Position numbers and translations under genes: made by a program. Shown piece by piece: positions 1-39,088 of a stretch of DNA of 64,000 bases; position 1 is the stretch's first letter, and the number at the start of each line of letters is the position of its first letter. This DNA comes from a virus: positions 64,001 through 128,000 of IMG/VR virus record IMGVR_UViG_3300017991_000049. One strand, 5' to 3'. The notes beneath the pieces were generated by a model. It was not told the origin of the DNA, searched no databases, and was given only the letters and a program-made list of their open reading frames with translations.

Positions 1-178
1 ACGCAGGCGACGACCTCGTGCAGGTTCTGGTGCTGCTGCCGCACCAGCTCGAGATTGGCCTGCGCCATGGCTGCGAGCGGAGCGCTTCCACCGTAGTAGT
101 CCGTCCACAAAGACCCTAGCAGCCCTAAAACTGCATCTGGAGTCGGTAGGTCGAGCGTGTTGGCTAGGTGGTGTGGCA
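1..178 (-). CDS. Partial CDS: N-terminal ~59 codons of a minus-strand gene that continues past the left window edge
   Basis: Reverse-complement frame from the ATG at 176-178 runs stop-free to position 1 (MPHHLANTLDLPTPDAVLGLLGSLWTDYYGGSAPLAAMAQANLELVRQQHQNLHEVVAC). Same strand as all neighbours. Absent from the ORF track because it is truncated. Confidence 0.3.
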
Positions 179-243
179 TGCTTATGTCACTTCTGCATTA
201 TTGTCACGGTGGGGGTAAAAATAGCATTAACTGTCCGGATTCG

Positions 244-270
244 TCGCAAACCCTACGCCTATAGGGGTTT
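244..270. promoter_or_regulatory. Palindromic hairpin element GCAAACCCTACGCCTATAGGGGTTTGC
   Basis: Near-perfect inverted repeat (8-9 bp arms) with an inner CCTATAGG palindrome. Lies between the stop of 366..1865 and the start of the partial gene. Could be a terminator or operator. Confidence 0.4.
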
Positions 271-365
271 GCGTTAGTCACGATGCGCAATTACTGTTTA
301 GTAACGGGTTTGGCCGGGGTCCTTATGTCAGTCCTGGGTCATGCAAAAAGCGCGGTGACTCAACA

Positions 366-1865
366 TTATGCCGATACGATGTGCACATTGCGGAGTGCGA
401 TGAACGCCGCCATGGTCTTGTCGTCAACGGTGTCTCCCTGGATCAGCACGTTAGAGACAGCTGTGGAGTCTGGCAGCGCCCGCGCGAGCGCGAACTGCTT
501 CGGCTGTACGCCGATCGGCAGCCCGTTTATGTACGCGACGGCCGCGCGCTTGAACTCGTCTTCGTCTACCTCGGCGGTCACGTTGATCCGCACGGTGACC
601 AAGGCTGGCTTCACAGCTTTGATCAGCACATCGAGGCCAGGTTGACGGACTGCCGGCTTATCGACTGCAGTCTGAATCGTATCGACGTCAGGCATGACAA
701 GCACGGTCACGATGAAGGCCTTCTTGTCGCCGACACTGAGGCCGAGCGTCTCGATCTCCTCTTTGAACGTGATTGTGGCTTCCTGGTAAGCGCTGTACAG
801 CCCTTCGTCTACCGTCTGGACGTCCGGCACAGCGCCTGCGGTATTCATGCTGCGGACATCGTCCAGGATCGTGCAGCCGTCGGCGGTGTGTGGCAGTCCA
901 GGCGCACGGATGTCACGGACCAGATAGAAACCAGGCGCGTCGTCGCGCGCCAGCGTGACTTCCCAGGTAGCCTCCGTTGGCGTCTTGGACAGCAACGTGG
1001 CGTTCTTGGTGATGCCGCGGCTCTTCGGGAAAGCTCGCGTGCGCACGTAGACGTCCAGCTTGCCGCCGCCAGACACGGTACCACCGCGCCGGTCTCGTAG
1101 CATTTCAGGATCACTCGCACCGATTACGGCCACATCGAGCACGTTGAATGTCAGGCTTTTGATTAGCGCCTTGACGCTCTCAGGACTGCCGAAGCCAGGC
1201 ATCGCGGCGCCGGTCTGCATCTGCTGCACTAGCTCCTCGTTCGACTGCGCTACGTTGCCGCCAGCGAAGTCTTCCGTGGCGTACGCCAGCAGAACACCCG
1301 GCGGGCTCGGTACTATGGTGAGCTTGTCGAACTGCGCCAGTACGGCGTTCTCGTGGATCTCGGCGGCCATGACAGGTACTTGCACGGCGAAGTTGCCGTT
1401 GTCCAGCTCCTCCGAGCGCACATCGTATGTGCCGAGGCTGCTAGTATCAGGCGCTTTCACGCTGACCGGCCGTGTGGCGTAGAACAGTTGCCCGTTGGCG
1501 CGGAACTTCGTGCTCGTGCCAAAGTTGATGCCACTGGCTCTGTCCATTACGACGGTGACGCTACCGGCCGCCTTGGTGGACACACGCCGGGTGATGCGAT
1601 AGTTGGACGCCAACGCGTCGACAGCAGTCGGAACTGCTGCGTCGGGCTCTTGGGCCAGCTCCAGCGCCGACATAGACTTGCGCAGCCGTTCGATCGCCTC
1701 CATGCTTGCGCCCTGCAAGATGGCGTGCAGTTCTGTCACCAAGTCACCGAGGACACCCCTGCGGGCATTCAAGTCCGGACACTGCTCTTCGACCATCTGG
1801 GCGATGATGGCGTAAGCCGCATCGACGCGGTCGTCGTCAATCTCATTCAGTTCGGGCCAGTACAT
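366..1865 (-). CDS. Hypothetical virion structural protein (tail or baseplate-like, 499 aa)
   Basis: Long ORF with non-artifactual composition at the distal end of the structural module. Any baseplate-J resemblance is subjective only. Confidence 0.55.
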   Translation of the reverse strand: MYWPELNEIDDDRVDAAYAIIAQMVEEQCPDLNARRGVLGDLVTELHAILQGASMEAIERLRKSMSALELAQEPDAAVPTAVDALASNYRITRRVSTKAAGSVTVVMDRASGINFGTSTKFRANGQLFYATRPVSVKAPDTSSLGTYDVRSEELDNGNFAVQVPVMAAEIHENAVLAQFDKLTIVPSPPGVLLAYATEDFAGGNVAQSNEELVQQMQTGAAMPGFGSPESVKALIKSLTFNVLDVAVIGASDPEMLRDRRGGTVSGGGKLDVYVRTRAFPKSRGITKNATLLSKTPTEATWEVTLARDDAPGFYLVRDIRAPGLPHTADGCTILDDVRSMNTAGAVPDVQTVDEGLYSAYQEATITFKEEIETLGLSVGDKKAFIVTVLVMPDVDTIQTAVDKPAVRQPGLDVLIKAVKPALVTVRINVTAEVDEDEFKRAAVAYINGLPIGVQPKQFALARALPDSTAVSNVLIQGDTVDDKTMAAFIALRNVHIVSA

Positions 1866-1874
1866 CAGTAACTC

Positions 1875-2300
1875 CTATGTTGGGAGCGGCAGAATGAACT
1901 GCATCGATTCAGCCTCTGTTGTCAGCGTGATCACGAGCTGCATGACGCCTGGTTGGACGATGATGTTGTTCAGCTGTAGGCGTTTGAAGCGCTGCTCAGG
2001 CGGGTCGTCCTCTGTCTCTTCCTCCTGCATTGCCGCAGCGATATGGCGCGCGGCCGATTGGAAGTGCGCCGCCACGTCGGACTCGGTGAACATGTGGCCC
2101 TGCTGCCACAGCGTCATGAATGGGCACGCACGCGGCACCTCGCGGCCGAACGTGTAGCGCTGACTGCCGGTCTCGGTCAGCAGCACGCACAATACGCGTT
2201 GCAGCACGTTGTGGATGCCGGAGGAAACACCGCCGTCATCAAACTGCGAGAGGACGAAACCCTCCTCGTCGACGCTCCAGGCTGTTATGTCTTTGCTCAT
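1875..2300 (-). CDS. Hypothetical protein (~142 aa; start re-picked at internal ATG)
   Basis: The ORF-track N-terminus (Arg-rich) overlaps the upstream gene. An internal ATG at 2298-2300 overlaps the upstream stop as ATGA. Confidence 0.45.
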   Translation of the reverse strand: MSKDITAWSVDEEGFVLSQFDDGGVSSGIHNVLQRVLCVLLTETGSQRYTFGREVPRACPFMTLWQQGHMFTESDVAAHFQSAARHIAAAMQEEETEDDPPEQRFKRLQLNNIIVQPGVMQLVITLTTEAESMQFILPLPT

Positions 2301-2731
2301 GTCGTCAACATCTCCTGGATGAATGCCTCCACAGAGCCCTTGTGTACGCCGTTGGCGGCGTCTCCGTGCGCCTTGCGCCGCCCCGACAGCAACATGCACG
2401 CGCGTGTGGGTGTGCGGTGACGCTCGCGGAACGAGCGTTCCATCATGGCCATGTAGCCGATCTCGATACTGGTACCCGCTGCGATCCTACTCTTGTTCTC
2501 ACCCGCGCCTGTGAACTCGTCGATGTAATCCTGGTTCACGTCCGTACGGTCGAACGGGTCGCCCATATCGGGGATGTCCGTAGGGTCGAACGTCCAGCCG
2601 GGTGTCTTCCCACTTGGGATCATCCACGGCCGCTGCACGGCGTTACCTTCCAGGTACGATCCGATCGACAATGAGTCGGCCGATACGTCGTCCATCAGGC
2701 TCGTAAATTGTGCGTCAACGGCAAGGGTCAT
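2297..2731 (-). CDS. Hypothetical protein (144 aa)
   Basis: Complete ORF, acidic and hydrophilic. Its stop overlaps the next gene's start (ATGA). Confidence 0.5.
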   Translation of the reverse strand: MTLAVDAQFTSLMDDVSADSLSIGSYLEGNAVQRPWMIPSGKTPGWTFDPTDIPDMGDPFDRTDVNQDYIDEFTGAGENKSRIAAGTSIEIGYMAMMERSFRERHRTPTRACMLLSGRRKAHGDAANGVHKGSVEAFIQEMLTT

Positions 2732-3471
2732 TAGAGCATCTCCAGGGTATCGCGCTTATCGAGCTTCTGCTGGATTTGCGCCATCCTGTGGCTGACAGCA
2801 GCCGGGCTGATCTTCAGCTGCGCCGCCACCTGGCTGGGCTTGGTTTGCGGGTGCCCGTGCATGCCCAGCACCCGCTCCATGATGAACTGGTTGGTCTCGT
2901 CTAGGTCATCATAAACTAGTTCGAGCCATACGTCAGGGCGTTCTTGCAGCGAACGTACCCGAGGGTCGTAACCTCCGCTGCCTTCGTCGCCCGGCCGGGT
3001 GATCGTGCTCTCGGCCAGGGGCCTGCCGCTACCACGGATATACTGCAGCCGCTTGAGCGACAGCCCGGTGAAGTCCGACAGCTCCTGGTCCGACGGCGGC
3101 CGGCCCAGCTTGTCTTCCAGCTCGTTGACAGCACGCTCGGAGTGCATCTGGTCCAGCGCGACCTGCTCTGGCACGCGGATGATCTGGCGATGACTGGACG
3201 CCGTACGCCGCAAGCGCTGCAGCCGGGACATCATGTGCGACTTGAGCGGACCACGGGCTGGATCGTACGAGTGCAGGGCTTCCGCGGCCATACGCTTAGC
3301 CTGGGACCTGATCGTCACACTCTTGGCCGACGGGCCGGCGTACGCGCGTACGGCCATGCTGATAACCGGATCGAGCGCCTTGAGCATCTGACCTGTGTTT
3401 GCGCGGGACGGATCGGTAGCCCAAGCCTTGTATGGCTCCTGAAAATCGGGCTCTAGCAGGTTTTTCGACAT
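2731..3471 (-). CDS. Sigma-70 family RNA polymerase sigma factor (~246 aa)
   Basis: C-terminal region 4.2-like HTH (ERVLGMHGHPQTKPSQVAAQLKISPAAVSHRMAQIQQKL) and a region 3/4 stretch (GLSLKRLQYIRGSG). Start re-picked at the ATG at 3469-3471, which is preceded by GGAGGT. The ORF-track N-terminus overlaps the upstream gene and looks artifactual. Confidence 0.75.
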   Translation of the reverse strand: MSKNLLEPDFQEPYKAWATDPSRANTGQMLKALDPVISMAVRAYAGPSAKSVTIRSQAKRMAAEALHSYDPARGPLKSHMMSRLQRLRRTASSHRQIIRVPEQVALDQMHSERAVNELEDKLGRPPSDQELSDFTGLSLKRLQYIRGSGRPLAESTITRPGDEGSGGYDPRVRSLQERPDVWLELVYDDLDETNQFIMERVLGMHGHPQTKPSQVAAQLKISPAAVSHRMAQIQQKLDKRDTLEML

Positions 3472-3479
3472 GATACCTC

Positions 3480-5180
3480 CTACGGCGCCGGCGCCGGTGG
3501 CGCGCCGCCACACGAGTCGCTCAGTGTTGGACACGTCTGACCCGCAGTCAAGTTGTGCGAACCTATCCACGGCGTGGTATACAGCGGATGCGCCGTTACG
3601 GTGTAGTCGTCGCTCGCATGCTCGGTAGCCGTGCGGATATGCGACATGCGGAACGCGGTGTAGCACTTCTGATGCTGCGCATCGAAGAAGTGGCTGACGC
3701 GTACCACCGAGCCGTACCGCTTCTCTCCGGCGATCGGCGGCTGGTTGCTGCCCTCAGTGCCTTCGAACGAGATCGTGGAGCCTGGCGCGATGTCAAAGCG
3801 GACCGGACCCACAATATCGCCCCAGCGGTTCTTGAGTATCTCGTTGACGTAGAAGGCGTGGGCCAACTCGTCCAGGATAGTCTTCTGATCGTCTTTGGAG
3901 TCTACCGGGTCTGGTAGAACGGCGTTCGGCGTACCGACGCCTGGGTGGTTATGGGCGTTGCCGCGTACGGTATTGGCGCCGGCGATGCCTACGGAGTCGG
4001 CTGAGAACCCGGATGGTTGCACGTACTCAGACAGGTACGACGGCGCGCGTTTCAGGATAACGATGCCGTCCTCGCGTCCGACATACATACCGCCGATCGT
4101 ATCCTCGACCGTGTCGTCCGGGCGCATGTTGCCGCCAGATCGCGAGCCGTAGCCAGCGAAGAACCCCACAGCCCGGGTTGCGCGCGGCAGGAAGGCGTTC
4201 ATGTCCTGCTGCGACATGTCACGTGTGAGGATCGACGCGTTGGCGCCTCCCGGATTCCACTCAGCACGCAGGCCCGGAATGAACGGCACGATCGCGGCAT
4301 GCGTTGGGTATGGGATGAGCTTGAAGAAGAACTTGGCTGACAGCTCCCCGATAATCTTGTCCCAGAACGTGGTATGCGCCATCGCGTTGAGCGTATTGGA
4401 CCGGTTGGCCGGCGTCAGCGAGCTGACCGCGATGTCGTTGGCGATCGCCATTGCTGCCACGTCGGCGTCGACGCCGCCAGGCACCTTGAAATCCAGTACC
4501 TCGCCGCTGATATTGATCAACTTGAGCGCGGCAAGCGCCTCGTGGTTCTTGCTGTCGTTCTCTGCGTCGCCGTCAGGGAACAACTGAAACTGCGCTGAGC
4601 CGATGCGCGGCAAGCAGCACAGTTCCTCGAACCATGGCATGATGGCGTCACCCCACAGGTCGCTCTGGATATTGGCTGCCGTGACGACGGACTGCGCAGT
4701 CGTCCGGCCCAGCCAGTGCGTCAGCGCGCCGCCCGACGCGTCGAAGTCGATCGCGCTGTTGAACGTGAAGTGCGAAGGGTTCTGCGGGTGCATCATGGCG
4801 TTGAGCGTCGACGAGAAGCTGAGAGCTGACAGCCAATGAGTCATCTCGAGCGTCATGGCGTAGCCGTCGTAGGTTCGCCGATAACCGATGCCTGTCACCC
4901 AGCCACAGAAGATTCTGTACAAACCTGCCGGCCAGATACCAGGCCCGCCAGCCTTGAGTGTCGATGTGACGTAGACTTGAACCTGCAGCTGCAACGGAGA
5001 ATTCAACCCGCCACCATGGGCGGTCGACGCTACGAGCGTATCGGCCCTGTAGCCGACCGGCAAAACCGCCGTGGCAGTCGGGATCTTGTTCATTTCGTAC
5101 GAACAGCCGAATTGCACCAGCTCGTAGAACGTGCCTCCGATCTGGGCGACTAGTTCGAATTCGATCGCAACGTAACTCAT
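3480..5180 (-). CDS. Large virion structural protein (~566 aa; tail sheath/tubular-like candidate)
   Basis: Long ORF. Start re-picked at MSYVAIEFELV (ATG 5178-5180), which overlaps the upstream stop as ATGA. Function not recognisable by eye. Confidence 0.55.
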   Translation of the reverse strand: MSYVAIEFELVAQIGGTFYELVQFGCSYEMNKIPTATAVLPVGYRADTLVASTAHGGGLNSPLQLQVQVYVTSTLKAGGPGIWPAGLYRIFCGWVTGIGYRRTYDGYAMTLEMTHWLSALSFSSTLNAMMHPQNPSHFTFNSAIDFDASGGALTHWLGRTTAQSVVTAANIQSDLWGDAIMPWFEELCCLPRIGSAQFQLFPDGDAENDSKNHEALAALKLINISGEVLDFKVPGGVDADVAAMAIANDIAVSSLTPANRSNTLNAMAHTTFWDKIIGELSAKFFFKLIPYPTHAAIVPFIPGLRAEWNPGGANASILTRDMSQQDMNAFLPRATRAVGFFAGYGSRSGGNMRPDDTVEDTIGGMYVGREDGIVILKRAPSYLSEYVQPSGFSADSVGIAGANTVRGNAHNHPGVGTPNAVLPDPVDSKDDQKTILDELAHAFYVNEILKNRWGDIVGPVRFDIAPGSTISFEGTEGSNQPPIAGEKRYGSVVRVSHFFDAQHQKCYTAFRMSHIRTATEHASDDYTVTAHPLYTTPWIGSHNLTAGQTCPTLSDSCGGAPPAPAP

Positions 5181-5644
5181 GTGCGTGCGCGCTCCGTGCA
5201 GTCTGCGACGGCCAGCATCAGCCCGCCTAGCTTGTAGGGCAGCTGGTCGTGATTCTTCCACAATTCGAGGAAGGTCTTATTTGGCTCCTGCTCGCCGTCG
5301 CCGAACAGCTCAATATCGTCGTCCACAGTCAAAGTCGTGATTAGCGCTGGCAGCAGTTCTGGAAGGCCGCCATCGGCGGTGTTACCCAGGTGCGCAGCGT
5401 CAAACGGCAGGTACGTGATCCGTGGATCGTATGCCAGCACGTACTCCTCGAGTTCGGTGGCGTGCAGCATCTGCATCACTTGCTGCAGCCGCAGGCCTGT
5501 TACGGGCGGGTTACCGAACACGATGTCGCGCACTTTCTGGACGGCCGCAGGGATTGCCTGCGGGACAAAGTCCTGCGGCACCCACTCGTCGTCGGAGCCG
5601 GTGGCCGCCATGTTGTGCAGTAGGGTTCTTACGTGATTTATCAT
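5177..5644 (-). CDS. Hypothetical protein (~155 aa; start at internal ATG)
   Basis: The ORF-track N-terminus overlaps gene 5641..6111. The ATG at 5642-5644 forms an ATGA overlap with that gene's stop. Confidence 0.45.
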   Translation of the reverse strand: MINHVRTLLHNMAATGSDDEWVPQDFVPQAIPAAVQKVRDIVFGNPPVTGLRLQQVMQMLHATELEEYVLAYDPRITYLPFDAAHLGNTADGGLPELLPALITTLTVDDDIELFGDGEQEPNKTFLELWKNHDQLPYKLGGLMLAVADCTERART

Positions 5645-6111
5645 GGTGGCACGATGGTCTTGAATATGAGCTGGAACTTGGCCAGCCGGGACTTGGGGTT
5701 CATGTAGTCGAACTTGCCGCCGACTAGGAACGCGTCTGCGCTGTACCCGGCGAACACCAACGTAACCGGCGTACCCGTGATCGAGATAGCGTAGGTGTTG
5801 TAGTAGTCCATCGCCGCAGTCAGCCCGTGGCCCGACAGGAAGCATTCCATGCCGCCGATGCCGCTCACGACGACGTCGCCCATCTTCTCGCCGAAGACGT
5901 AGACGTAGGTGTAGTTTCGCAGCGTGAGCAAGAACTGGTAGTTGCCCTGCGTGCGCGCTGACACGCCTGACACCACAGCATGACCTGGTGACGACGGGAT
6001 AGCCGGGTTCAGTGTGAATGTCAACGGAACCGCCGTGCCGGTAGCCACCACGTTCATGATGCCGGTCAGCTCGCCGCTTTTGATGGCATTGGTCCCGAAT
6101 ATGTAGGCCAT
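5641..6111 (-). CDS. Small virion-associated protein (156 aa)
   Basis: Complete ORF with TAATG start/stop overlap to the upstream gene. Composition is beta-rich and structural-like. Confidence 0.5.
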   Translation of the reverse strand: MAYIFGTNAIKSGELTGIMNVVATGTAVPLTFTLNPAIPSSPGHAVVSGVSARTQGNYQFLLTLRNYTYVYVFGEKMGDVVVSGIGGMECFLSGHGLTAAMDYYNTYAISITGTPVTLVFAGYSADAFLVGGKFDYMNPKSRLAKFQLIFKTIVPP

Positions 6112-8174
6112 TATGCGATTCCTCCTGTATCGCCAGGTTGCTCGCTCACACCGTTCATCATGCCTGCTATCGTCTGCGAGTCCCCGTCACCAAACGAGAA
6201 GGACAGCGCATCCGTGTCAACGGCTGTAGCGCCGGCACGCTCTCCTGGCAGGTCTTGTGCGGCATCCGTGCCCGATTCCTGCTCGTCTACCTGTCTTGCT
6301 GCGGCCCTGTCATTCGATACCTCCGTGGCACCCGCAGCAAACGCTGCGGCCTCCTCCGGCGTTTTGACGCCCGATTTGACGGCATGGGCAGCGCGTCCGA
6401 CGAAGTTACGCTGCCCGTCCGCGGCATGCTCGATCTCGTCGTCCACACGTCCCTGGGCCTTGTCTTGCTCCTTATGCGTCTCCTCCAGGGCACGCTTGCT
6501 GTGCATTGCAGCAGCATGGCCTGCGCCACCCCTATAGTTTAAGCTACGAGCCGCTCTTGAGGCAGCGCCAAGTGCCAGTTCTGCCGTGGCCTCGGCGTTT
6601 CTGCCGCCTAAACCCGCCTCTTCAAGGCGCTCAGCGATGGCCTCGATCACTTCCTCGCGGGACGCGCCGGCCATTTCGCGCACGGTGCTGGTCACGATCT
6701 CGCCGGCCTTCCACATCCGCCGGGCTGACGTCCGTTTGCCACGCTGGCGCAACACGCCCGACATCTGGTTAGCCACGGTCCTTCGCATGAGCGGTGCGAT
6801 GTCGGCGTCCCACTGGGTTTCGCGGACAGCGCCGGCCACCTTGTCGCCGTACAGGTCTTTATTCTCGTCGCGCTGATGGATGATCCCGGTGGCCACGGTC
6901 ATGTCGACGCCGCTCTTCTCCAGCGTCTTGCGGAAGGCCGCAGCGTCGTAGAGGTTGAACTCGCCCTCCTCTTTCAGCTTGATATACGCCTTGTGCGCTG
7001 GCGAGCCGTCTCGGAGCATGCCCTTGTCGCCCATCCGGAGTAGCGCTGCTGCGTTGTTGGCAGTCTCGCTGCGTCCGGCCTGCGCCATTAGCTGAGTATC
7101 CTGCTGCATCATCTCGTTAGCGCTGATACCGCCAGCCGCCTGGATGAACCCAGCGCCCTGGCTCTTGGCGTATGCGCCGAAAGCCATACCGTGCTGACCG
7201 GCCATGACGCCCGACATCGCGTCGCCGCCCTTGGCTACCGACGCGGCGCCGCCGAACTGCTGCAGGCCCGCAGCCTCGCCGTAGCTGATGTCGGCCTGAC
7301 GGGACAGCTGCTTGAACATGCGTGTCTGCTGCTCCAGCTGTTCATTGTTGACGCCACGGGAGAACCCACCCATGTTGAGCTGATCGAGCGTCTGCGCCAT
7401 CTGGTCGGCATTCATGGCAGAGTAACCGCCGCCGAGGTCGCGGATAGCGCTCATCGGCTTGGCGAGCCCAGCCTGCCAGTCAGTGAAGTCTTTGCGCCCA
7501 GCTTGGGTCTGGTAGTCGATGTTGCCGGGACCAAGTCCACGCTGCATAGCTGGGGCTACGAACGACGACAGCTGGCCCAGGCCGAAGCCGCGGGTGGCAG
7601 CTAGGCTGCCCTGCGGATGGCTGTACAGATTCTGCTGTGCCGCGCCAGTCAGTTGAGTCGCCGCGCCCGTCAGCTGCCCCGGCGTCATACCTGTGCCAGG
7701 CTGCCCAGGAGTCTGCATCTGGTTACGGAACAGCTCGGAGTAGTTGCCGGCCGCCTGGTTCGCCCCGAGGCCGAGCGCGTCCATCGTACCGCCGGGCATG
7801 AAATTACCAACCAGCGGCGTGATAGCGGCTACCGCCGCGCCGAACTTGTCGCTCTGCAACAGTTCGGACATCTTGTTGCCTTCTTCGGAAGACAACAGCC
7901 CCATGCCGACCAGCCCACCACCCTGCGACCCAGCGTAGCCGTGAATCAGCTCCTGCAGGCTTTGCTGCGCAGCCGCCATGCCGATACCGCTGACGGCGCC
8001 CAGCTGGCCCTGCTCGAACTCGCGGGCGCGCTGGGTGTCCTGCAGGTTCTGCGTAGGCCAGAACTGTCCCAGTGTCATGCCAGACGGAACCATCCCCTGC
8101 CCGAACGTCTGTAGAAACATGTTCAGGAGAGGATTGCTCGAAAAGGCTCCACTAGGGTGCGAAGCGCCTGACAT
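6111..8174 (-). CDS. Gly/Gln/Met/Ala-rich low-complexity virion protein (~687 aa; tape-measure or internal-protein-like)
   Basis: Long biased-composition ORF. Start re-picked at MSGASHPSG (ATG 8172-8174) to avoid a 77-nt overlap with the upstream ORF. Confidence 0.5.
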   Translation of the reverse strand: MSGASHPSGAFSSNPLLNMFLQTFGQGMVPSGMTLGQFWPTQNLQDTQRAREFEQGQLGAVSGIGMAAAQQSLQELIHGYAGSQGGGLVGMGLLSSEEGNKMSELLQSDKFGAAVAAITPLVGNFMPGGTMDALGLGANQAAGNYSELFRNQMQTPGQPGTGMTPGQLTGAATQLTGAAQQNLYSHPQGSLAATRGFGLGQLSSFVAPAMQRGLGPGNIDYQTQAGRKDFTDWQAGLAKPMSAIRDLGGGYSAMNADQMAQTLDQLNMGGFSRGVNNEQLEQQTRMFKQLSRQADISYGEAAGLQQFGGAASVAKGGDAMSGVMAGQHGMAFGAYAKSQGAGFIQAAGGISANEMMQQDTQLMAQAGRSETANNAAALLRMGDKGMLRDGSPAHKAYIKLKEEGEFNLYDAAAFRKTLEKSGVDMTVATGIIHQRDENKDLYGDKVAGAVRETQWDADIAPLMRRTVANQMSGVLRQRGKRTSARRMWKAGEIVTSTVREMAGASREEVIEAIAERLEEAGLGGRNAEATAELALGAASRAARSLNYRGGAGHAAAMHSKRALEETHKEQDKAQGRVDDEIEHAADGQRNFVGRAAHAVKSGVKTPEEAAAFAAGATEVSNDRAAARQVDEQESGTDAAQDLPGERAGATAVDTDALSFSFGDGDSQTIAGMMNGVSEQPGDTGGIA

Positions 8175-8643
8175 AACTCTTTCCCCATTTCGCGAGCTGT
8201 TTACGGATGGCTTCCTTGCCCTTCTCACTTCGAGGATCGCTGAAACGCTTCACATAGGTATTACGCATCTCTTCGTTCGCTATCAGCTGCGCCTGGCGTC
8301 CGGTCGGCACCCACGGCAGTAGCTCGCTGAGAAGCTGGTTGCGCAAAGACTCGGTCTGCTTATGGTGCAGATTGAACGCCATCTGGTCTGCGCCATAGTC
8401 TAGTAGCGCCAGATTGAACTGGTACTGATGCTCCCGCGCCTGAATACGCAGCTTCCGCGCGACATGCTCGACAACGAGGTTGGCTTTACGCCACCATCTT
8501 ATGTCAAGTATATCACCGCCCAGGTCCAACAGCCCCTCGCAATGTGCGTGGAGCAGCAAGCATGTTAGGCGGTTCTGTCGAAAAAATCGGGGTCTTCCGC
8601 CTTCGCTTCCATGTACTGCAGCACCTGGTTGAACTGCACCCAC
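8152..8643 (-). CDS. Hypothetical small protein (start uncertain, probably internal or non-ATG)
   Basis: The C-terminal ~110 aa are hydrophilic and protein-like. The N-terminal part overlaps gene 8565..9761, and no clear ATG follows the overlap. Confidence 0.35.
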   Translation of the reverse strand: MGAVQPGAAVHGSEGGRPRFFRQNRLTCLLLHAHCEGLLDLGGDILDIRWWRKANLVVEHVARKLRIQAREHQYQFNLALLDYGADQMAFNLHHKQTESLRNQLLSELLPWVPTGRQAQLIANEEMRNTYVKRFSDPRSEKGKEAIRKQLAKWGKSYVRRFAP

Positions 8644-9761: not shown

Positions 9762-9773
9762 CTTCTTCTCCCT

Positions 9774-12587: not shown

Positions 12588-12640
12588 ATTCTCACCGACA
12601 TGGTCCTATACCCTAGAGACAATTCTCCGAGCGGGCGACG

Positions 12641-13102
12641 TTACGAAACTGCGTATGTCATCCAGAGGAAGACGAAACCGAGTTGCTCGTTGACGACCAT
12701 GTCCTGCGCTGCGACAGATCCGCCATAACTGTTGATGATCACGTGCTGCATGACCACCGTTACTGTGGCACCAGACGGACCGCCTTGGCATTCCGCGTCC
12801 ATGGCAACCGTCAACGAGTTTCCGTCGCTGTAGCAGACGTTTCCGTATTTCAGGAAGAACGCAGCTGCCAGTGCGGATGGGCCCATCACACGCGACATGG
12901 AGCCTTGGCCCTGTGTACGGCCGCCGACCAGCACAATGTCCGTGGAGGTCACGTCGTAGAGCCGCGTGATGTTCTGGATGTAATTCCACATCAAGTTCTG
13001 GACCAGGAGCCCAGTGTACTTCGAGTCGAACGTAATGGAGGCGCCGTCTGCGCTGAATGCGCCGCCGTACGTGACATCATTTGAAAACATGTCGGTAGCC
13101 AT
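12641..13102 (-). CDS. Hypothetical structural protein (153 aa)
   Basis: Complete ORF in the structural operon. Confidence 0.5.
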   Translation of the reverse strand: MATDMFSNDVTYGGAFSADGASITFDSKYTGLLVQNLMWNYIQNITRLYDVTSTDIVLVGGRTQGQGSMSRVMGPSALAAAFFLKYGNVCYSDGNSLTVAMDAECQGGPSGATVTVVMQHVIINSYGGSVAAQDMVVNEQLGFVFLWMTYAVS

Positions 13103-13187
13103 TAGGGCGACCTCCTATACGCAATGACTTGTTACTACTATCTATCCCCGCCACCAGCCGGACCTTCAAGCGCCGTCCGGCAGAGCG

Positions 13188-20026: not shown

Positions 20027-20956
20027 CTACGCGAAGTCGGCGCGCGCCAGGCCGCCGGTGTGCCCGATCGAACCGCCAAGCGTCTCGTAGGCGAAGAATT
20101 CAATCATGAATGCCTCGCGCTTGATATGCATGGTGGTGTCTTCGAGCAAGTACGACTTGCCGATGAACCGAGGGTCGCCGAAGAAGTACATCGAATCATC
20201 GGGGACCAAGTCGCGCTTGATCGTGATGATCCACTTGCAGCCCATCAGGTCGATCTCGGACCAACCGCTCTTCAGCATGTCGCCGGAGAGCGAGCCACCA
20301 GCCTCGTCGTAACCCCACTTGAGGATTTCGCGAATGGTGACGTTGTTGATCAGGACCGTGTTGACTTCGAGGTGACTCGGAGTCTTGGGCATGATCTTCA
20401 GGGCTTCCTGCACGGTATCGCGCGAAATACCGCCCCAAACGGTCTCCCACTGGGCAACGCCAGAGGTCGGCACGATTGCATTGGCGGCGCCACCGAGAGC
20501 TGTGTTGACGGCGGTGAGGAACTTGCTGTCCTCTTCCGCCAACATGTCCTTGATGGCATTGTCACTGAGCACTTGGCGGATGTCCATCTGCCAAGTGCGC
20601 AGCTCGTCGATGTCCTTGACGAAGCGCGGCGTCACGATCCGGTCGAACTGCACACGGTAGCGCGGGCCACGGATGTACACGTTGATCGGCAACGTGGCGA
20701 ACGGGATGGAGATGGCTGCCGGAGAACCAGGCTCCTTGTCCACAACGATGACCGGCTTGTCGGTGTCGACTTGGCGGTCAAGGTCGTCATTGCTGACCTG
20801 GACAGGCGGGATGATCTTCCGGTAGAAGCCGTCTTCACGCACACGGACACGGGTGAACTCGTTCACGGCGTCCAGAGCGTTTTTCTCCATCCCCGGCGTC
20901 TCGAGCTGGCTAAACAGCTCTTCGTTCAGGACTTGAACGCTTGAGGGGCTGGACAT
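20027..20956 (-). CDS. Major capsid protein candidate (~309 aa)
   Basis: Size and composition fit an HK97-like capsid protein. It follows the scaffold-like acidic protein and is followed by a strong hairpin terminator. The ORF-track start is TTG; the ATG at 20954-20956 has GGAGGTT upstream. The N-terminal motif ALDAVNEFTRVRVREDGFYRKIIP is duplicated at 52.9-53.1 kb. Confidence 0.55.
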   Translation of the reverse strand: MSSPSSVQVLNEELFSQLETPGMEKNALDAVNEFTRVRVREDGFYRKIIPPVQVSNDDLDRQVDTDKPVIVVDKEPGSPAAISIPFATLPINVYIRGPRYRVQFDRIVTPRFVKDIDELRTWQMDIRQVLSDNAIKDMLAEEDSKFLTAVNTALGGAANAIVPTSGVAQWETVWGGISRDTVQEALKIMPKTPSHLEVNTVLINNVTIREILKWGYDEAGGSLSGDMLKSGWSEIDLMGCKWIITIKRDLVPDDSMYFFGDPRFIGKSYLLEDTTMHIKREAFMIEFFAYETLGGSIGHTGGLARADFA

Positions 20957-21036
20957 CTTCAACCTCCTTGATTGGTTTTCACTTCCTATCCGTGGAAGCG
21001 ATCATTATCGGTTTATGCGACGCCTTCCTAACTGCC

Positions 21037-31793: not shown

Positions 31794-33683
31794 CTAGGTT
31801 TTAGGCGGCCTCAACACGTCCTTCGGCCAATTCCGACCAAACTCAGTGCCCTCGGCCATAGCCGGGACAAAGCTCGTACCCTTGGTGTCGGACACAGCGC
31901 CACGATGCGTCGCGCTGAGTAGGCTTTTCTTCTGATTCGAACCCAGGAATCTGGTCATCCAGTCAGGATCATGACCGATCGAGGCCATGGCCCTGACCAT
32001 GTGCGGGCGAAACGCCGGCTCGGTGTCGTGCGCCTCGACCGACTTCACGCCGAATTCTTCGAATACTGGCAGCATTGATGGCGTTATCCGGGTGCCGATC
32101 GTGTAGTGGAGCACCGGACGCTCCAGATACTTGCCTACAGCGTACTGCGGCTCAAACTGGGCCGAACCGTCGCGTGGCTGGTATCCGCGCTCAAATTGCT
32201 GGTACGGGATGACATCGCCTGGAACGTGGCCGTCATCCTCGTCCACCATCTCTACGTGATCGATCAGTCCTCGGGCGAGCAGCTCGATGTTCCGGCGGTT
32301 GGCGTACATGCCTCCGGCTCTGTACGCGTCTGCGAAGGTGTCGACGAAGTATCTTCGTCCTTCGCCGATTCCCTTATGCTTGACAATCTCTGAAGGATTC
32401 GGGATGCCGTCGCTGATGACGTCACCGGCCTCGACTGTATCTCCTCTCTCAACTTGGAGATCAAACCCCGGGAGCACGAAGTGTCTCTGTCCGCTAATGG
32501 TAACGTACCGACCACCTGCCGGCGCATCTTCGACGGCCGTCACCTTCCCGTCGAGCTGGGCATGGGCTGCGCCTCCTTTGAAGGTTTTTGGCACTTGCAC
32601 GAGCTGGTTGACGTGTTGGAAGCCGGTGACGGACTGCGCTTCTCCTTTGACTCCACCTGAATGCTTTGAGGATAGCTGACCTTGCGTAAGCTTCTCGCTG
32701 AGTGCTTGTGCCGCCGCGACGCCAACCATGTCGCCAACCGGTGATAGGCCACCACGCTCACGTATACCAACATCACGAGAATACACCCCAGAGGCAGGCC
32801 CTCCCACCATTGGACTACGGACAAGAATACGCTTAACACCTTGATTCTCCAGGTCCTTCAAGATCTTCGGGGTAAGGACGGTGTTCCGCTCATAATCACC
32901 AGCTGGGGACGCCAACAGTGCTCCTTCACTGTCAACGTCGGTCACGTCGACTGGCAGGCCCCGTATCGGCGCTCCTTCGCCCGGTTCCTCATCGTCATCA
33001 GAAGCCGTGACGAGTAGTCGGTGTGCCAGCTGGTTAAGTTGCTTCGAGAAGAAGCCCGCATCTTGGGTCGCAAATTTCACGTCGATCAGACCCTTGCGCG
33101 CGCCATACGTAGCGGCCCAGAACTCCGCAGGCCGCAGACCCTCGGCGAAGCTTGTCTGTACTGGAAACGGAATGACGTTCTCGTGGTGATCGACATACAG
33201 CATGTCGCCGCCGATCAGGCGCTTTAGTCCGGTGATACCCTTGCCACCGCCTACAAAGCCGGACACCACCTGGTCAGCCAGCGGGTTCTTGGCCTTCTTG
33301 GCGTCGGCAAGAATCTCCTTCTGTAGCCGTTCGTGCTCGACCGCAGTCGCTTCGACGACCTTCTCTTCCTTCTTCTCCTCACTCCACTTATCGTTGGACA
33401 GGATGTCCCGGATGCGCCTGTTCAGACGCTGGCGAGACATGTGGACAGAAGGCGTTGGGCGCATATGACGCAGGCCAAAAGAACTCCCACCGGTTGTGAA
33501 CGCAACGTCTCGGCCCACGTCAGACAGGCGTTTGGAAACTTCACGGTACTTCTCCGGATGTTCCTCGGCGACTTGGCGAAGCAGCGCGCTGATGCCCTTC
33601 TTGTCCAAGACACGCGTGTAGTCACGCATATCCGACGGTAGCGCCTCGTTCACCATGAGTTGTCCGATGGTCGTACGAATCAC
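31794..33683 (-). CDS. DNA-directed RNA polymerase beta-prime subunit, C-terminal segment (629 aa)
   Basis: ATYGARKGLIDVKFATQDAGFFSKQLNQLAHRLLV matches the beta-prime/RPB1 region around the trigger loop (compare [29 protein letters not shown]). Confidence 0.8.
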   Translation of the reverse strand: MIRTTIGQLMVNEALPSDMRDYTRVLDKKGISALLRQVAEEHPEKYREVSKRLSDVGRDVAFTTGGSSFGLRHMRPTPSVHMSRQRLNRRIRDILSNDKWSEEKKEEKVVEATAVEHERLQKEILADAKKAKNPLADQVVSGFVGGGKGITGLKRLIGGDMLYVDHHENVIPFPVQTSFAEGLRPAEFWAATYGARKGLIDVKFATQDAGFFSKQLNQLAHRLLVTASDDDEEPGEGAPIRGLPVDVTDVDSEGALLASPAGDYERNTVLTPKILKDLENQGVKRILVRSPMVGGPASGVYSRDVGIRERGGLSPVGDMVGVAAAQALSEKLTQGQLSSKHSGGVKGEAQSVTGFQHVNQLVQVPKTFKGGAAHAQLDGKVTAVEDAPAGGRYVTISGQRHFVLPGFDLQVERGDTVEAGDVISDGIPNPSEIVKHKGIGEGRRYFVDTFADAYRAGGMYANRRNIELLARGLIDHVEMVDEDDGHVPGDVIPYQQFERGYQPRDGSAQFEPQYAVGKYLERPVLHYTIGTRITPSMLPVFEEFGVKSVEAHDTEPAFRPHMVRAMASIGHDPDWMTRFLGSNQKKSLLSATHRGAVSDTKGTSFVPAMAEGTEFGRNWPKDVLRPPKT

Positions 33684-34717: not shown

Positions 34718-37700
34718 CTATTCTAGGATCTCCACGCGCTGGCCGGAGCCTATTTCGCCGCGATGGTAAGCGGCAATTGCATCTTTCTTGGTCTTGAACA
34801 CGCGTGCTGGCGTGGGGTCGGCCTTCGCTGTAGCCGCCCACAGCCCGCCGACGTATTCCTTGCTCGGCGTGTAATGGACATCGAAATCGCCGACAGCCAG
34901 CAGGTTCTTGGACGGCATCAGCTTCTCTTTGGCCTCGTCCACGGCGTCGTCACTGGACGGCACGTGGAACTGCATGGCGTCACCATCGAAGTCAGCGCCG
35001 AAGCCGCCAACGGTCAGCGGCGGAATCTCCAGCGTGGATGACGATGTGAGCTGCGGCCAGAACGCCATCACGCCGAACCTGTGCAACACAGGTGCGCGGT
35101 TGATGACCACCGGCCGGGTCTGCATTTCGCTCTGTAGCTCACGCAGCGCCAGCGGGGTGCGCTCCTTAGCCTCCTCCATGGCCTTGATCTTGCCCATGCC
35201 ACGCCGTACGAGGCGGCGCACGATGAACGGCTGGTACAACGTCCACGCCTCGTCGATCGGCAGCCCGACCTGGTCCATGTCGAGGTTCGGGTTAGGCGTG
35301 ATCGTAGCGCGTCCAACGAGGTCGACGGTGCTGCCGAGCAGCTTCCGTTGTACGGTACCGAACTTCGGGCTACTGCCAAAGACATGCTTGAGGATGCCCT
35401 TGATGTCCTGCTCTTGGAACTCCGGCGAGATCGGGTTACCGAGGCCGGTCACGCCCTTGAACGCCTTGTACACGGCCAGGCGCTCGTCAGTGATGTCGTC
35501 GGTGAGCTTAGACAGGTCTTTCAGGTTCTTCGTGGCCTCGAAGACCTCTTTGTACAGGTAGTTTGCGTCGTTCACGAGCTGCGTGTTGGTATCGGCGAAC
35601 AGCGAGACCGGGCGGAACGTAGGCGGCAGCACGGGCACGCGGTCCATCATCCAGTCACCTGGGTGCTGGCCGTTCTCCTTCGCTGACTTGAGATACTGCA
35701 AGCGTCGGATCGCCTTGTCGCGGTAGGTCTTCTTACCGCTGTTCATCTCTGCACGTGCGCGCTCGATCTCCTTGTTGAGGTTGATATCCTCAAGCGCAGA
35801 CTTGATGCCCGCAGGTCCAGTTAGCTGCTCACGCCCAGGCAAGCCTTCGCGGCCAGCCAAGACCGATTCGAACTGCTTCTGCGTCAGCCCTAGGATGCGC
35901 CGGATAGGTTCTTCCATAACCGGGTTTGGCAGCGGCTCGTGCAGCTTGATATGGCTCCAACGGTTACCACCGTGGCCGCCGGTAAGCGACTCGTCGAACA
36001 GGCCGCCCTTGATCGGCGTCAGCTTGCTGATACGCCAGTCGACTGTCTGTGCGTTCTGGATTTCGCGATCGCCGGTGAGATCAACAGCGTCCGGACCGGT
36101 CATGGCCATGACTTGCAGCTGCGTGCCGGTCTTGACTGGGTTGATGCCTGCGCCCTTCAACTGCGCAACGAACTTCTCGAACATGAACGGGACCTTCGGC
36201 TCGGGCGGCGTATAGCCGGACATGAGCATGCGCCAGTAGTCCTCGTTCCGCTGGCCTCGGACGATGCTGGCGTCACGGATGGTCTTGTACGCACCGTGTG
36301 ACAGCAATGCATTCAGTTCGAGCATACCGACGCGCTTCGAGCCTGATGGTCCGCCCTTGGCAGGCTGACCCTCAGCGGTGTAGCCGCCACCGGCCGCGCG
36401 GCCTTGCAGCTTGGCCTCGGCTGTGTGGTGCAGCTTCATGATGAAGCGGTTGCCGGCATCGATGTCCTTGAGCGTGCGCCCGGTCTTCGGGTCGGTCAGG
36501 TCTTCGGTGTCCGGCAACCCGTGCTTGCGCAGTTCGCGTTCGGCGAACTCGCGGAGGTCTTTCAGGCTGCCGAAGTCTTGCAGCTTGTACGGCTTACCAG
36601 TCAGCGCGGCAATCTTACCTAGCTGGGCCTCGATGATCTGCGAGGGATTGCCCCGACCCATGATGCCGCCTGGGTTGAGTAGCACTTCGTATGGCACTTT
36701 GTCGGGACCGTGCGGCATGTCTTCGTCCGGGACGATGGCGGCCACAACGCCCTTATCGCCGTAACGTCCGGCGAACTTGTCACCAACTTGCGTGGGATGT
36801 AGGGACTTAACGACAACGGAGATACCCTTCTTTCCTTTGTGAACGTCGGTTACGGTTCCTGGCGAGTGGTGATCCCACATGATCGATGCGTTCGACCACG
36901 ACGCCTTGCGACGACCAAGCCGCGGACCCGTCTTACGCTCTTTCACGGCCAAAATCAACGGCTCGTCCATGTTCACCGTCTCGCCGACGCGCACTACGCC
37001 GTCGTCATCGTACTTCTCCAGCAGCTTCCGGTCGTATTCGCCCGGATAGATCGACATGAATGTGTTCTTGGACGCCTTGGTGCCTTCGGCAATATCAAGC
37101 TCGTGCTGGTACATGTGTTCCGAGCTAGCGCGCTTAGCGAACGACTCCGAGATTACGATGGCGTCTTCGAAGTTGTAGCCTTTGTACGGGAGGTACGCGA
37201 CGCGTGCATTTTTGCCAAGGGCAGTTGTCCCGCCTTGATCAGTGAAGTTTGAGGAGGCAAGAAGCTGGCCGGAGCGAACTTTGTCACCAGGTCGGACCAC
37301 AGGGCGATTGTGGACGAAGGTCTTTCTGTTGTAGGGGTGGTTGTCATAGAGCTCCTCGTAATGAACCTTCCGGTCCTTACCCCTGATCTTGATAGCGCTC
37401 GGCGTGACTTCCAGCACCGTACCGTCGACCTGGCTCTTCACCGCGCCCATGTCACTGCCGAGCAAGTCCTCGAACGATGTGCCTTCCATGCCCGGGACAC
37501 CAGACTGTACCAATGGCGCCTCTGCGTCCGCCATCGGCAGCGCTTGCGAAAGCATGCGGCTGCCCATAGAAACGCGCTGTGGGAACGCAGCGCCTTTCAA
37601 CGGGACCATGGATGCCAACGGGCCGAACGCCTCGGTCATGTCGGCTAGCTGGTAGTCGACGTCCTTGGCGGCGACGTACTTGAGCTTGCCTTTGTGCTGT

Positions 37701-39088
37701 GCGCGGACGTGCGGCTGCCCCGATTCAAGCTCTCCTGGAAAAGCGACGACAGCATCTGCAACATCCTGTGGTGACTTCCAGACGGTCTTGCCTGTCTTCG
37801 GATGAAGGAATCGCGAGTATATGCGTCCGTCAGGGCCTTTAAGCGTTCGGATTGATAGGCGGGAATCGATACCGATCTTGCCCGACTCTGGGGTGTGGAC
37901 AGGATCAATGAATCCAAGGTGGCTAGGTTGAACATTACGCGCCTCGTCGGGAACCGAATCGGACGACGGGATGCCGCCCTCGCCCATACGCGTTACGCGC
38001 ACGCGCTGGTCGTACAGTTCCGCTGGGTTGATTTCTTCTAGTGGATTGCCAAGCCCGGTCTCGAGGATAGCGCCTCGCACCATCTTTTGGAAGATGTTGG
38101 GCTGCAATCTGCTGAGATTACCGGGCAGCGTGGCCTTCCACAGCGCCTTACGCGCTTCGATCGCAGCCTTGTTGATGCGCTCGGCGAATAGATCCTCCGG
38201 CCCGACAGTGCGCTGGAACGCCATGGCGTCGCGGTCGTCGGCATCTTCCTCGCCCTTGTGTACGCGCAGTAGCTTCTGTGTCGACGACAGGATGACCTCG
38301 GGATCAACCTTAGCATAAGGTTTGCCGAGCGTACGCTTAGTGACCTCTGGGTCCAGTTCCATCTCGTCGAAAGCTGCACGGATAGCCTCGAACATCTCCT
38401 GGTCGTCGCCAGCAGTGCCTCTGCGGACCAGTTTCTTGTACAGCTTCTTGATCGTGCCTGGGTCGCTCTTCTGCGCATTCGCAACGAACAACTCGTTACC
38501 CCAGGCATCGCGTATCTGTCTGTCCGTGGCACCCAATGCTTTAAGCACCGGCATCAACGGCATGCGAGCTTGTCCGAACTGAATTCGAAAGATACCTGTC
38601 TCTGGGTCCAGGAAGTAGCGGTGACCAAATCCCCGTGCAACATTGACATGGGACTCTAACTCGCCGGACTCCTTGATACGAGTGAAGATCCCAGGTCGTA
38701 ACCGCATCTGGTGAGACAAGCTGTACTCGTTGCCGTTGAGGATGAACGTACCACGGGGAGTCATGTGCGGAATGCTGGCCAAGGTGACCCGCTTCTCGTC
38801 CACGACTTGCTGGGCGTCATCGTTTGTGCGCAGCTGGTATGTACCGCGCAAACGGCGGCCGAGCGAGCGGCCCTCTAGGACAGCGCGCTTCTCATCGGCC
38901 TTTGTGTATGTTTCTGGTCCGTCGTAGCCAACATTAGACAGGCCCAGTATGTATTTCTGGTTGGAGACGGGCGCCTGGTTCTGCGCCGCCGTAAGCGCAT
39001 TCTGGTAGACAGCGGCACGCGTGGCATTCACGTCACCGAATGCGCGGGCCTCTGGTGGCCCGCCTTGCATATCCAGCAGAGGATTCAT
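34718..39088 (-). CDS. RNA polymerase fusion protein: beta-like subunit fused to the N-terminal catalytic part of beta-prime (1456 aa)
   Basis: Beta motifs RGTFILNGNEYSLSHQMRLRPGIFTR, NFEDAIVISE and GDKFAGRYGDKGVVAAIVPDEDMPHGPDKVPYEVLLNPGGIMGRGNPSQIIEAQLGK. Beta-prime active-site motif GGFGADFDGDAMQFHVP near the C-terminus. Confidence 0.85.
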   Translation of the reverse strand: MNPLLDMQGGPPEARAFGDVNATRAAVYQNALTAAQNQAPVSNQKYILGLSNVGYDGPETYTKADEKRAVLEGRSLGRRLRGTYQLRTNDDAQQVVDEKRVTLASIPHMTPRGTFILNGNEYSLSHQMRLRPGIFTRIKESGELESHVNVARGFGHRYFLDPETGIFRIQFGQARMPLMPVLKALGATDRQIRDAWGNELFVANAQKSDPGTIKKLYKKLVRRGTAGDDQEMFEAIRAAFDEMELDPEVTKRTLGKPYAKVDPEVILSSTQKLLRVHKGEEDADDRDAMAFQRTVGPEDLFAERINKAAIEARKALWKATLPGNLSRLQPNIFQKMVRGAILETGLGNPLEEINPAELYDQRVRVTRMGEGGIPSSDSVPDEARNVQPSHLGFIDPVHTPESGKIGIDSRLSIRTLKGPDGRIYSRFLHPKTGKTVWKSPQDVADAVVAFPGELESGQPHVRAQHKGKLKYVAAKDVDYQLADMTEAFGPLASMVPLKGAAFPQRVSMGSRMLSQALPMADAEAPLVQSGVPGMEGTSFEDLLGSDMGAVKSQVDGTVLEVTPSAIKIRGKDRKVHYEELYDNHPYNRKTFVHNRPVVRPGDKVRSGQLLASSNFTDQGGTTALGKNARVAYLPYKGYNFEDAIVISESFAKRASSEHMYQHELDIAEGTKASKNTFMSIYPGEYDRKLLEKYDDDGVVRVGETVNMDEPLILAVKERKTGPRLGRRKASWSNASIMWDHHSPGTVTDVHKGKKGISVVVKSLHPTQVGDKFAGRYGDKGVVAAIVPDEDMPHGPDKVPYEVLLNPGGIMGRGNPSQIIEAQLGKIAALTGKPYKLQDFGSLKDLREFAERELRKHGLPDTEDLTDPKTGRTLKDIDAGNRFIMKLHHTAEAKLQGRAAGGGYTAEGQPAKGGPSGSKRVGMLELNALLSHGAYKTIRDASIVRGQRNEDYWRMLMSGYTPPEPKVPFMFEKFVAQLKGAGINPVKTGTQLQVMAMTGPDAVDLTGDREIQNAQTVDWRISKLTPIKGGLFDESLTGGHGGNRWSHIKLHEPLPNPVMEEPIRRILGLTQKQFESVLAGREGLPGREQLTGPAGIKSALEDINLNKEIERARAEMNSGKKTYRDKAIRRLQYLKSAKENGQHPGDWMMDRVPVLPPTFRPVSLFADTNTQLVNDANYLYKEVFEATKNLKDLSKLTDDITDERLAVYKAFKGVTGLGNPISPEFQEQDIKGILKHVFGSSPKFGTVQRKLLGSTVDLVGRATITPNPNLDMDQVGLPIDEAWTLYQPFIVRRLVRRGMGKIKAMEEAKERTPLALRELQSEMQTRPVVINRAPVLHRFGVMAFWPQLTSSSTLEIPPLTVGGFGADFDGDAMQFHVPSSDDAVDEAKEKLMPSKNLLAVGDFDVHYTPSKEYVGGLWAATAKADPTPARVFKTKKDAIAAYHRGEIGSGQRVEILE

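Follow-up and report, generated by a model that had tools for sequence, protein, structure and literature searches.

Why would a bacteriophage keep a sigma factor gene in the midst of its baseplate genes, and which RNA polymerase (RNAP) would such a factor serve? These questions are raised by a gene at 2731..3471, on the minus strand, in a stretch of 64,000 nucleotides (positions 64,001 to 128,000) of the IMG/VR virus record IMGVR_UViG_3300017991_000049, hereafter called the window. The product of this gene, 246 amino acids (aa) in length, is a real, very divergent sigma-70-family factor with the architecture sigma2–sigma3–linker–sigma4, group-3-like and without region 1.1. The same phage encodes an RNAP of its own. 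The reading that we favor, with a probability of about one half, is that the protein is the promoter-specificity subunit of this polymerase, made late in infection, probably packaged into the virion, and used to start early transcription in the next host.

A divergent sigma factor in a packed operon

An earlier note on this DNA had reported a sigma gene with a strong ribosome-binding site, and an open reading frame (ORF) is present at exactly that place: it runs from an ATG at 3471-3469 to a TAA stop at 2733-2731 and is preceded, 4 nt upstream of the ATG, by a GGAGG Shine-Dalgarno sequence (3476..3480, minus strand, read from the sequence). This motif shares one G with the TAG stop codon (3480-3482) of the upstream gene, which leaves a gap of 8 nt before the sigma ATG; at the opposite end, the sigma stop codon overlaps the ATG of the next gene in a TAATG at about 2733-2729. 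The sigma gene is packed in an operon, with translational coupling at both ends, and in the upstream direction the first gap to exceed 50 bp is reached only after 9 kb. With a codon-position GC of 0.66/0.44/0.78, equal to that of its neighbors, the gene is native to this genome rather than recently imported. Gene boundaries here and below were drawn from homology and public gene calls.

The exact sigma protein sequence is present on 10 public contigs, the longest of which, ENA ERZ27256796 k141_2629452, measures 226,517 bp, and an identical copy of the protein that forms the C-terminal half of the phage RNAP beta' subunit (beta'C) is found on a contig of 226,656 bp. The window is therefore part of an uncultured myovirus-type jumbo phage of about 226 kb, known from metagenomes only. 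It has a GC content of about 60%, and nearly all of its genes are on the minus strand. In a megablast search of positions 1-12000 against 50,697 phage genomes there was no match, and thus no close relative; neither tRNA genes nor Rfam families were found within the window.

Sequence and structure comparisons agree on the identity of the protein. The single sequence matches Pfam Sigma70_r3 over residues 113-143 (25.9 bits, cutoff 25.3), with weak helix-turn-helix (HTH) matches at residues 208-238. Against NCBIfam, weak collinear matches were obtained to the SigB/F/G, FliA/WhiG, and RpoD models, all far under their cutoffs (about 17-19 bits, compared with family cutoffs of 190-234 bits). The protein has relatives in 70 clusters of a set of 5.8 billion proteins, and an exhaustive search yielded 729 representatives at E<1e-30. 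A family alignment and profile were built with 35 relatives, in which Pfam recognizes Sigma70_r3 in every sequence (35/35, best E 1.6e-10) and Sigma70_r4 in six. When compared with PDB sequences, the family profile retrieved SigB (9e-8), SigA (4e-7), RpoS (9e-7), and FliA (4e-4) in collinear alignments that start at residue 42 or 63 and extend to about residue 240, that is, from regions 2.1/2.2 through 4.2. In Foldseek, the top matches were all sigma factors (best E 2e-7). Pfam Sigma70_r3, the PDB profile search, and Foldseek thus bear out the sigma-70 identity, with a region 3 and a region 4.2 HTH, that the earlier note had proposed. That note had also suggested a search with sigma-factor hidden Markov models (HMMs), which gave Sigma70_r3, just over the cutoff, and no match to Sigma70_r2.

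The AlphaFold2 model of the protein (mean predicted local distance difference test, pLDDT, 79) consists of three domains plus a linker. The predicted sigma2 domain (regions 1.2/2.1-2.4) occupies residues 1-100 (3172..3471, minus strand) and is helical in the model from residue 8 to 95, with a pLDDT of 82-95; region 2, the complete absence of which would have spoken against a sigma factor, is therefore represented in the predicted structure by an N-terminal sigma2 fold. Within this domain, Y69, D70, R73, H79, Q85, and R89 align in the HMM alignment with sigma70 F419, E420, R423, Y430, Q437, and R441, positions which we take to be those involved in DNA melting and -10 contacts. H79 and R89 are invariant in the family, and the other positions aligned with the -10 pocket are conserved or invariant; the W433/W434 pair of sigma70 is replaced by S-R (S82-R83). 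The sigma3 domain (regions 3.0-3.1, residues 101-148, 3028..3171, minus strand), which is the part recognized by Pfam Sigma70_r3, begins with a conserved I-R-x-P-E motif and forms a three-helix domain in the model (residues 102-147). It is followed by a linker of 31 residues at the position of region 3.2, the sigma finger (residues 149-179, 2935..3027, minus strand), which has no secondary structure, a pLDDT of 35-41, and a variable sequence in the family alignment. The sigma4 domain, with the region 4.2 HTH (ISPAAVSHRMAQIQ), covers residues 180-246 (2734..2934, minus strand) and is modeled as four helices (residues 180-243).

The three parts expected of a three-domain, group-3-like sigma-70 factor, namely sigma2, sigma3, and sigma4 with a region 4.2 HTH, were all found, and three other classes were ruled out. 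An extracytoplasmic function (ECF, group 4) sigma is incompatible with the presence of sigma3, and the score for TIGR02937 is 13.7 bits, compared with a cutoff of 42.9. A primary, RpoD-like group 1 sigma is excluded by the length of only 246 aa, the start of sigma2 at about residue 8 with no region 1.1, and the replacement of the W-W pair by S82-R83. A minimal late sigma of the T4 gp55 type is excluded by the presence of sigma3 and sigma4. The gene adds a new and highly divergent member to the sigma-70 family; its sole described relative, in phage Arash, has been annotated but not studied.

The phage polymerase and its link with the sigma gene

The larger of the two RNAP genes of the window (34718..39088, minus strand), identified by Pfam and homology, encodes a protein of 1456 aa that joins the beta subunit to the N-terminal half of beta' (beta-beta'N). 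It matches Pfam Rpb2_6 at 1e-56, together with Rpb2_3, Rpb1_1, and Rpb1_2, contains the catalytic ADFDGD motif, and shares 33% identity with Arash gp206 across 97% of its length. The beta'C half is encoded at 31794..33683 (minus strand) by an ORF of 629 aa (620 aa in the public call), with a match to Pfam Rpb1_5 at 2e-20. The beta' part aligns with residues 150-538 of Bacillus subtilis beta' (E 1e-50), coiled-coil included, and in this alignment the query segment 'DINLNKEIERARAEMNSGKKTYRDKAIRRLQYLKSAKENGQHP' pairs with the segment of B. subtilis that we take, from residues 260-309 of Escherichia coli beta', to be the clamp helices on which sigma2 docks. As judged from this alignment, the phage polymerase retains bacterial-like beta' clamp helices. 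No alpha or omega gene was identified in the 64 of about 226 kb examined, no systematic search having been made.

Sigma and polymerase are inherited together. Among 50,697 phage records, full-length relatives of the sigma factor are found only in Arash and in the Vibrio phages D69, D181, and D148, and the same four isolates are the only ones to match beta-beta'N over more than 90% of its length. Sigma and the phage RNAP are also encoded together on eight metagenomic contigs (116156, 220266, 198719, 43981, 103397, 226073, 94413, and 37713), as judged from contigs of exactly the same length in the sigma and RNAP protein searches, and five IMG/VR contigs are common to the sigma and RNAP lists. 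The sigma family thus co-occurs with the phage RNAP in every checkable genome. In addition, the identities of sigma and beta'C to their homologues fall together, that of sigma faster (81/83, 68/72, 50/63, and 39/58%).

The place of the sigma gene is equally constant. In 45 of 50 related loci, sigma directly follows a homologue of the 566-aa protein that is encoded upstream of it in the window, and in 46 of the 50 a homologue of a baseplate wedge protein starts 1-2 kb after it; this order of 566-aa protein, sigma, and wedge protein holds down to about 30% sigma identity. The wedge protein of the window (499 aa, T4 gp6-like, 366..1865, minus strand, PHROG 6, E 1.5e-8) is the product of the last gene of the operon and is homologous to Arash gp13, which was detected by mass spectrometry (MS) in the Arash virion preparation. 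In Arash, the positional orthologue of the sigma factor is gp10 (OQ632216, annotated as 'RNA polymerase sigma factor RpoS'; 234 aa, compared with 246 aa in the window), in the same order of a tape-measure-like gene, sigma, and baseplate genes: gp10 sits between gp8 (1165 aa, 'cell wall hydrolase, structural protein') and the structural proteins gp11-gp17. The placement is the same in D69, D181, and D148, in which the homologue is unannotated. By tblastn, the window is collinear with Arash, with correspondences between beta-beta'N and gp206, beta'C and gp216, an 802-aa protein and gp218, a 500-aa protein and gp222, the protein encoded at 20027-20962 and gp226, sigma and gp10, and the 499-aa protein and gp13. 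The gene at 20027..20962 (minus strand) encodes a homologue of the major capsid protein, with 30% identity to Arash gp226 across 305 aligned aa (E 1e-37). The PHROG 6 match of the wedge protein, its homology to Arash gp13, and the capsid homologue in the same block establish the structural setting that the earlier note had claimed. Its further remark, that the sigma gene is far from the polymerase genes, holds for the distance, which is 28-36 kb, and not for the organization, since all of them belong to the same one-directional block as the capsid and tail genes. Because the sigma gene is embedded and translationally coupled in the baseplate operon, its product would be made late, with the virion proteins.

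Virion association has been observed in Arash only, by MS on a sucrose-gradient preparation. In that study, the beta subunit gp206 was the top protein with 3516 spectra, beta' gp216 had 1210, and the sigma factor gp10 had 467, with 24 unique peptides and 100% coverage (PMC10585845). For lengths of 234, 1525, and 606 aa, these counts correspond to about 2.0, 2.3, and 2.0 spectra per residue for gp10, gp206, and gp216, which indicates that sigma, beta, and beta' are roughly equimolar in the preparation. By analogy with gp10, the sigma factor of the window phage, which is known only from metagenomes, is probably packaged as well.

Arash and D69 carry a second, canonical sigma factor (gp196 and VPHD69_0246), with Pfam r2/r4 matches and a 'TYAGWW' region 2.3, which is encoded among helicase genes (gp196 at L052 2468-3505, D69_0246 at L053 1798-2574). 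The text and table of the Arash study make no mention of gp196 (PMC10585845). The gp196-type family has 566 or more members at E<=1e-5, and several of these are encoded on contigs of 165-202 kb. In hhalign, the window sigma family and the gp196-type family are collinear over regions 2.2-4.2, with a probability of only 41% and an E value of 3e-4.

Some further features of these polymerases can be recorded here. The beta' subunit is split shortly past ADFDGD, near the split between gamma (rpoC1) and beta' (rpoC2) in cyanobacteria and plastids, and the best PDB matches of the phage beta' include cyanobacterial gamma subunits. Some beta'C homologues (P0224, P0281, and P0302) are about 1000 aa long and contain LAGLIDADG or Hom_end_hint domains, a sign that inteins or homing endonucleases have been inserted into the phage RNAP gene; the RNAP genes of D181 and D148 are interrupted by a homing endonuclease.

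Alternative explanations and known systems

The favored reading implies the following course of events. In a core composed of beta-beta'N and beta'C, the conserved clamp helices of beta' would serve as the docking site of sigma2, and sigma2, sigma3, and sigma4 would together read a phage-specific promoter. Sigma and polymerase would be made late, along with the structural proteins, packaged, and injected into the next host, where they would transcribe the early genes until another factor takes over. The first part of this proposal, a self-contained phage transcription system as suggested in the earlier note, is the best-supported reading: co-occurrence, the clamp helices, and the Arash MS data favor it circumstantially, while the pairing of sigma with the phage core, like packaging in the window phage and the early-gene role, is inferential. 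More tentatively, and with somewhat less confidence than in the favored reading, it can be proposed that a large and mostly uncultured lineage of phages of about 180-230 kb packs a pre-assembled holoenzyme of beta-beta'N, beta'C, and sigma, which is injected for early transcription, with the second canonical sigma acting later.

Several observations weigh against the favored reading. Sigma70_r2 matches none of the 35 relatives, nor the window sigma, and a profile of the N-terminal 100 aa alone found no sigma among PDB sequences. Because of these two results, region 2 rests on the predicted structure, in which it appears as a fold too divergent for sequence models. The flap-tip of beta, the docking site of sigma4, was left unaligned with bacterial beta in phmmer, and the window yielded no candidate promoter motif. 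Arash gp10 and the window sigma share only 25% identity, over residues 12-143 (54% of the length), and no sigma of the gp196 / D69_0246 type was found within the 64-kb window. Finally, the Arash preparation contained 116 proteins, including ribonucleotide reductases and kinases, and its authors allow for carry-over of abundant proteins (PMC10585845).

This last point bears on the possibility that the protein serves the phage RNAP as its sigma factor without being part of the virion. Its role would then be a middle or late one in the infected cell, for example in positive feedback on the structural block, and its detection in Arash would be carry-over, which the abundance of non-structural enzymes in that preparation, and the caution of its authors, make plausible (PMC10585845). 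All the evidence that pairs sigma with the phage RNAP applies here too, and the second sigma of Arash and D69 could start a cascade. However, a switch for late genes would be oddly sited deep in a late operon, with no promoter-sized gap near it. Moreover, sigma, beta, and beta' have near-equal counts per residue in Arash and gp196 is absent, so that specific co-packaging fits better than random carry-over. A purely intracellular role is, in our opinion, rather unlikely.

A further possibility is that of a classic phage sigma, which redirects the host RNAP core to phage promoters while the phage RNAP uses another specificity factor. To our knowledge, this is how all characterized phage sigma-70-family factors act, and the sigma2 and sigma4 folds, as modeled, could in principle fit a bacterial core. 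Reviews also deny sigma homologues to the multisubunit RNAPs of phages (PMC7824862; PMC13282480). However, the family is confined, in the isolates and in those contigs that could be checked, to genomes with the beta-beta'N RNAP; the divergence of sigma keeps pace with that of the phage beta'C, although the hosts range from Salmonella and Vibrio to unknown high-GC bacteria; and the phage beta' retains the helices on which sigma2 docks. These observations make host-core binding distinctly improbable. The protein could also be derived from a sigma factor and no longer initiate transcription, serving instead as a structural or ejected protein of the tail and baseplate, or as a decoy for the host core or an anti-sigma. 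Its fixed position between genes of the baseplate module, its great divergence (no Pfam r2, and r4 in 6 of 35 relatives only), and the loss of the region 2.3 tryptophan pair could be explained in this way. Group 3 and group 4 alternative sigmas likewise lack the W-W pair, however, and all three domains and the linker are kept at typical lengths, with invariant residues that align with the DNA-melting and -10-contact positions of sigma70 or fall in the I-R-x-P-E motif; we consider the loss of an initiating function very unlikely.

If the protein does confer promoter specificity on the polymerase of its own phage, how does it compare with known systems? T4, SPO1, and phiEco32 encode sigma factors (gp55, gp28/gp34, and gp36, respectively) but, unlike the window phage, no multisubunit RNAP of their own. 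T4 gp55 is a minimal, sigma2-like protein that requires gp33 and the sliding clamp, whereas the window sigma has sigma3 and sigma4. Compared with bacterial group 3 sigmas (SigB/SigF/SigG, FliA/WhiG), the window sigma differs in the recognition-helix residues of region 4.2, and its gene is carried by a phage and associated with a phage RNAP. The role proposed for it, that of a phage specificity subunit, is the same as that of gp68 in the non-virion RNAP (nvRNAP) of phiKZ and gp226 in that of AR9, which have no sequence similarity to sigma factors (PMC13282480), whereas the window protein is recognizable as one. The phiKZ and AR9 nvRNAPs also consist of four to five highly diverged pieces; the window RNAP, in contrast, is near bacterial beta/beta' (E 1e-45 to 1e-50). 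The virion RNAPs (vRNAPs) of phiKZ and N4 and the poxvirus RNAP with VETF follow the same proposed logic of an enzyme made late, packaged, and used early, but none of them uses a sigma-70-family factor, and in the window phage packaging is a proposal.

Phage Arash and the Vibrio phages D69, D181, and D148 share their genome type, an RNAP made of a beta-beta'N fusion and beta'C, with the window phage, which differs from them in its GC content of about 60%, in its size of about 226 kb, and in being known only from metagenomes. According to reviews of 2021 and 2026, phage multisubunit RNAPs occur without sigma homologues, and phage sigma factors occur in phages that lack an RNAP (PMC7824862; PMC13282480); the papers on moraphages and PaBG concern other lineages, with sigma factors but no RNAP core. 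The lineage of the window has both RNAP and sigma and is an unanalyzed exception to this division. Taken together, a bacterial-type phage RNAP, a dedicated sigma, the fixed place of its gene among virion genes, and its probable packaging represent a novel variation on known phage transcription strategies. If this is true, it would be the first sigma-dependent viral multisubunit RNAP and the first sigma that is a virion component, and it would contradict the generalization that such enzymes lack sigma. A real pairing would also provide a compact holoenzyme, apparently of three polypeptides, with a recognizable sigma, which could be tested in the culturable Arash and Vibrio phage D69, and it would bear on the evolution of sigma–core recognition and on the independence of phages from host transcription. 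If the pairing is not real, the gene encodes one further divergent phage sigma.

Candidate regulatory sites and other genes of the window

The earlier note had offered AT-rich palindromes as cognate promoter sites of the sigma factor and had suggested that recurring motifs be compared with -35/-10 elements. The one conspicuous AT-rich motif between genes is the 16-bp palindrome TTGWTCAYRWGATCAA, which is present in four copies (14811-14826, 28812-28827, 44677-44692, and 57222-57237), where 0.22 are expected in the window. It is dyad-symmetric and occurs in both orientations: the copies at 28812 and 44677 point one way and that at 14811 the other. Short gaps right in front of start codons without a Shine-Dalgarno sequence are filled by three of the copies. 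The palindrome is absent from 209 related loci, and with its symmetry, orientations, and copy number this led us to reject it as a sigma -35/-10 site: the motifs are operator-like dyads, and no asymmetric promoter was seen among them. They resemble the operators to which a dimeric regulator would bind. A 133-aa ORF (56846-57247) that weakly matches a MerR-type HTH (E 0.017) contains the most perfect copy within its codons 4-9, and it may encode an autoregulated repressor with TTGWTCAYRWGATCAA operators.

The pentamer ATAGG, enriched 20-fold between genes, was likewise rejected as a promoter motif, being composed of TAG stops followed by Shine-Dalgarno sequences. Scans of positions 1-14000 for sigma70-type promoters (5 sites, 3.7 expected) and terminators (8, compared with 8.9 expected) were uninformative. 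An intergenic element at 12588-12640, upstream of a gene for a 937-aa protein, is conserved in four related loci (L001, L007, L009, and L013). In these relatives it consists of GGTATTGG, a hairpin whose stem varies in sequence while its pairing is kept, and CTAGGGC...TAACCGG; in the window it is shortened to GAGAATTGTCTC-TAGGG. The element is not a classic terminator, because it has no U-run.

Around the sigma gene, the conserved 566-aa gene directly upstream (3480..5180, minus strand) was delimited by the public gene call and homology. Its reading frame is open to 5261 (593 codons). Homologues carry stop codons where the first 5-16 of these codons align, and for this reason, together with the public call of 566 aa, the true start is probably downstream of 5261, near 5180. 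A 222-aa ORF (5177-5845) overlaps the longer frame. From its position alone, one might guess that the 566-aa protein is a baseplate hub. On the other side of sigma, the gene coupled to it by TAATG encodes a protein of 144 aa (2297..2731, minus strand; from sequence and gene calls) and lies downstream of sigma in 20 loci; it overlaps by 4 nt a gene for a 141-aa protein (1875..2300, minus strand; from gene calls), which is kept in 17 loci. The 566-, 144-, and 141-aa proteins, a 705-aa protein, and nine others had no PHROG, Pfam, or PDB match. In the 186-bp gap beyond the wedge gene, a GC-rich hairpin (CGCAAACCCCTATAGGCGTAGGGTTTGCG, 245..273, minus strand, read from the sequence) is a possible end of the operon, its function as a minus-strand terminator being inferred; the terminator-like match of the scan at 251-266 falls on the plus strand, opposite to the baseplate operon.

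The gene at 45404-49456 encodes a protein of 1350 aa that has both a LigD 3'-phosphoesterase domain (residues 897-982) and an ATP-dependent DNA ligase region (residues 1009-1349); its N-terminal 900 aa belong to no recognizable family. The 152-bp intergenic region next to this gene (49457-49608) contains TTGACGTAAGCG twice, the second copy 13 nt before the start of the ligase-like gene. Finally, two overlapping ORFs (59758-60444 and 60303-60848) share a near-identical stretch, …TTGG(C/T)ATAGGGATGAACAAGACCGG…, which suggests that they are tandem paralogues.

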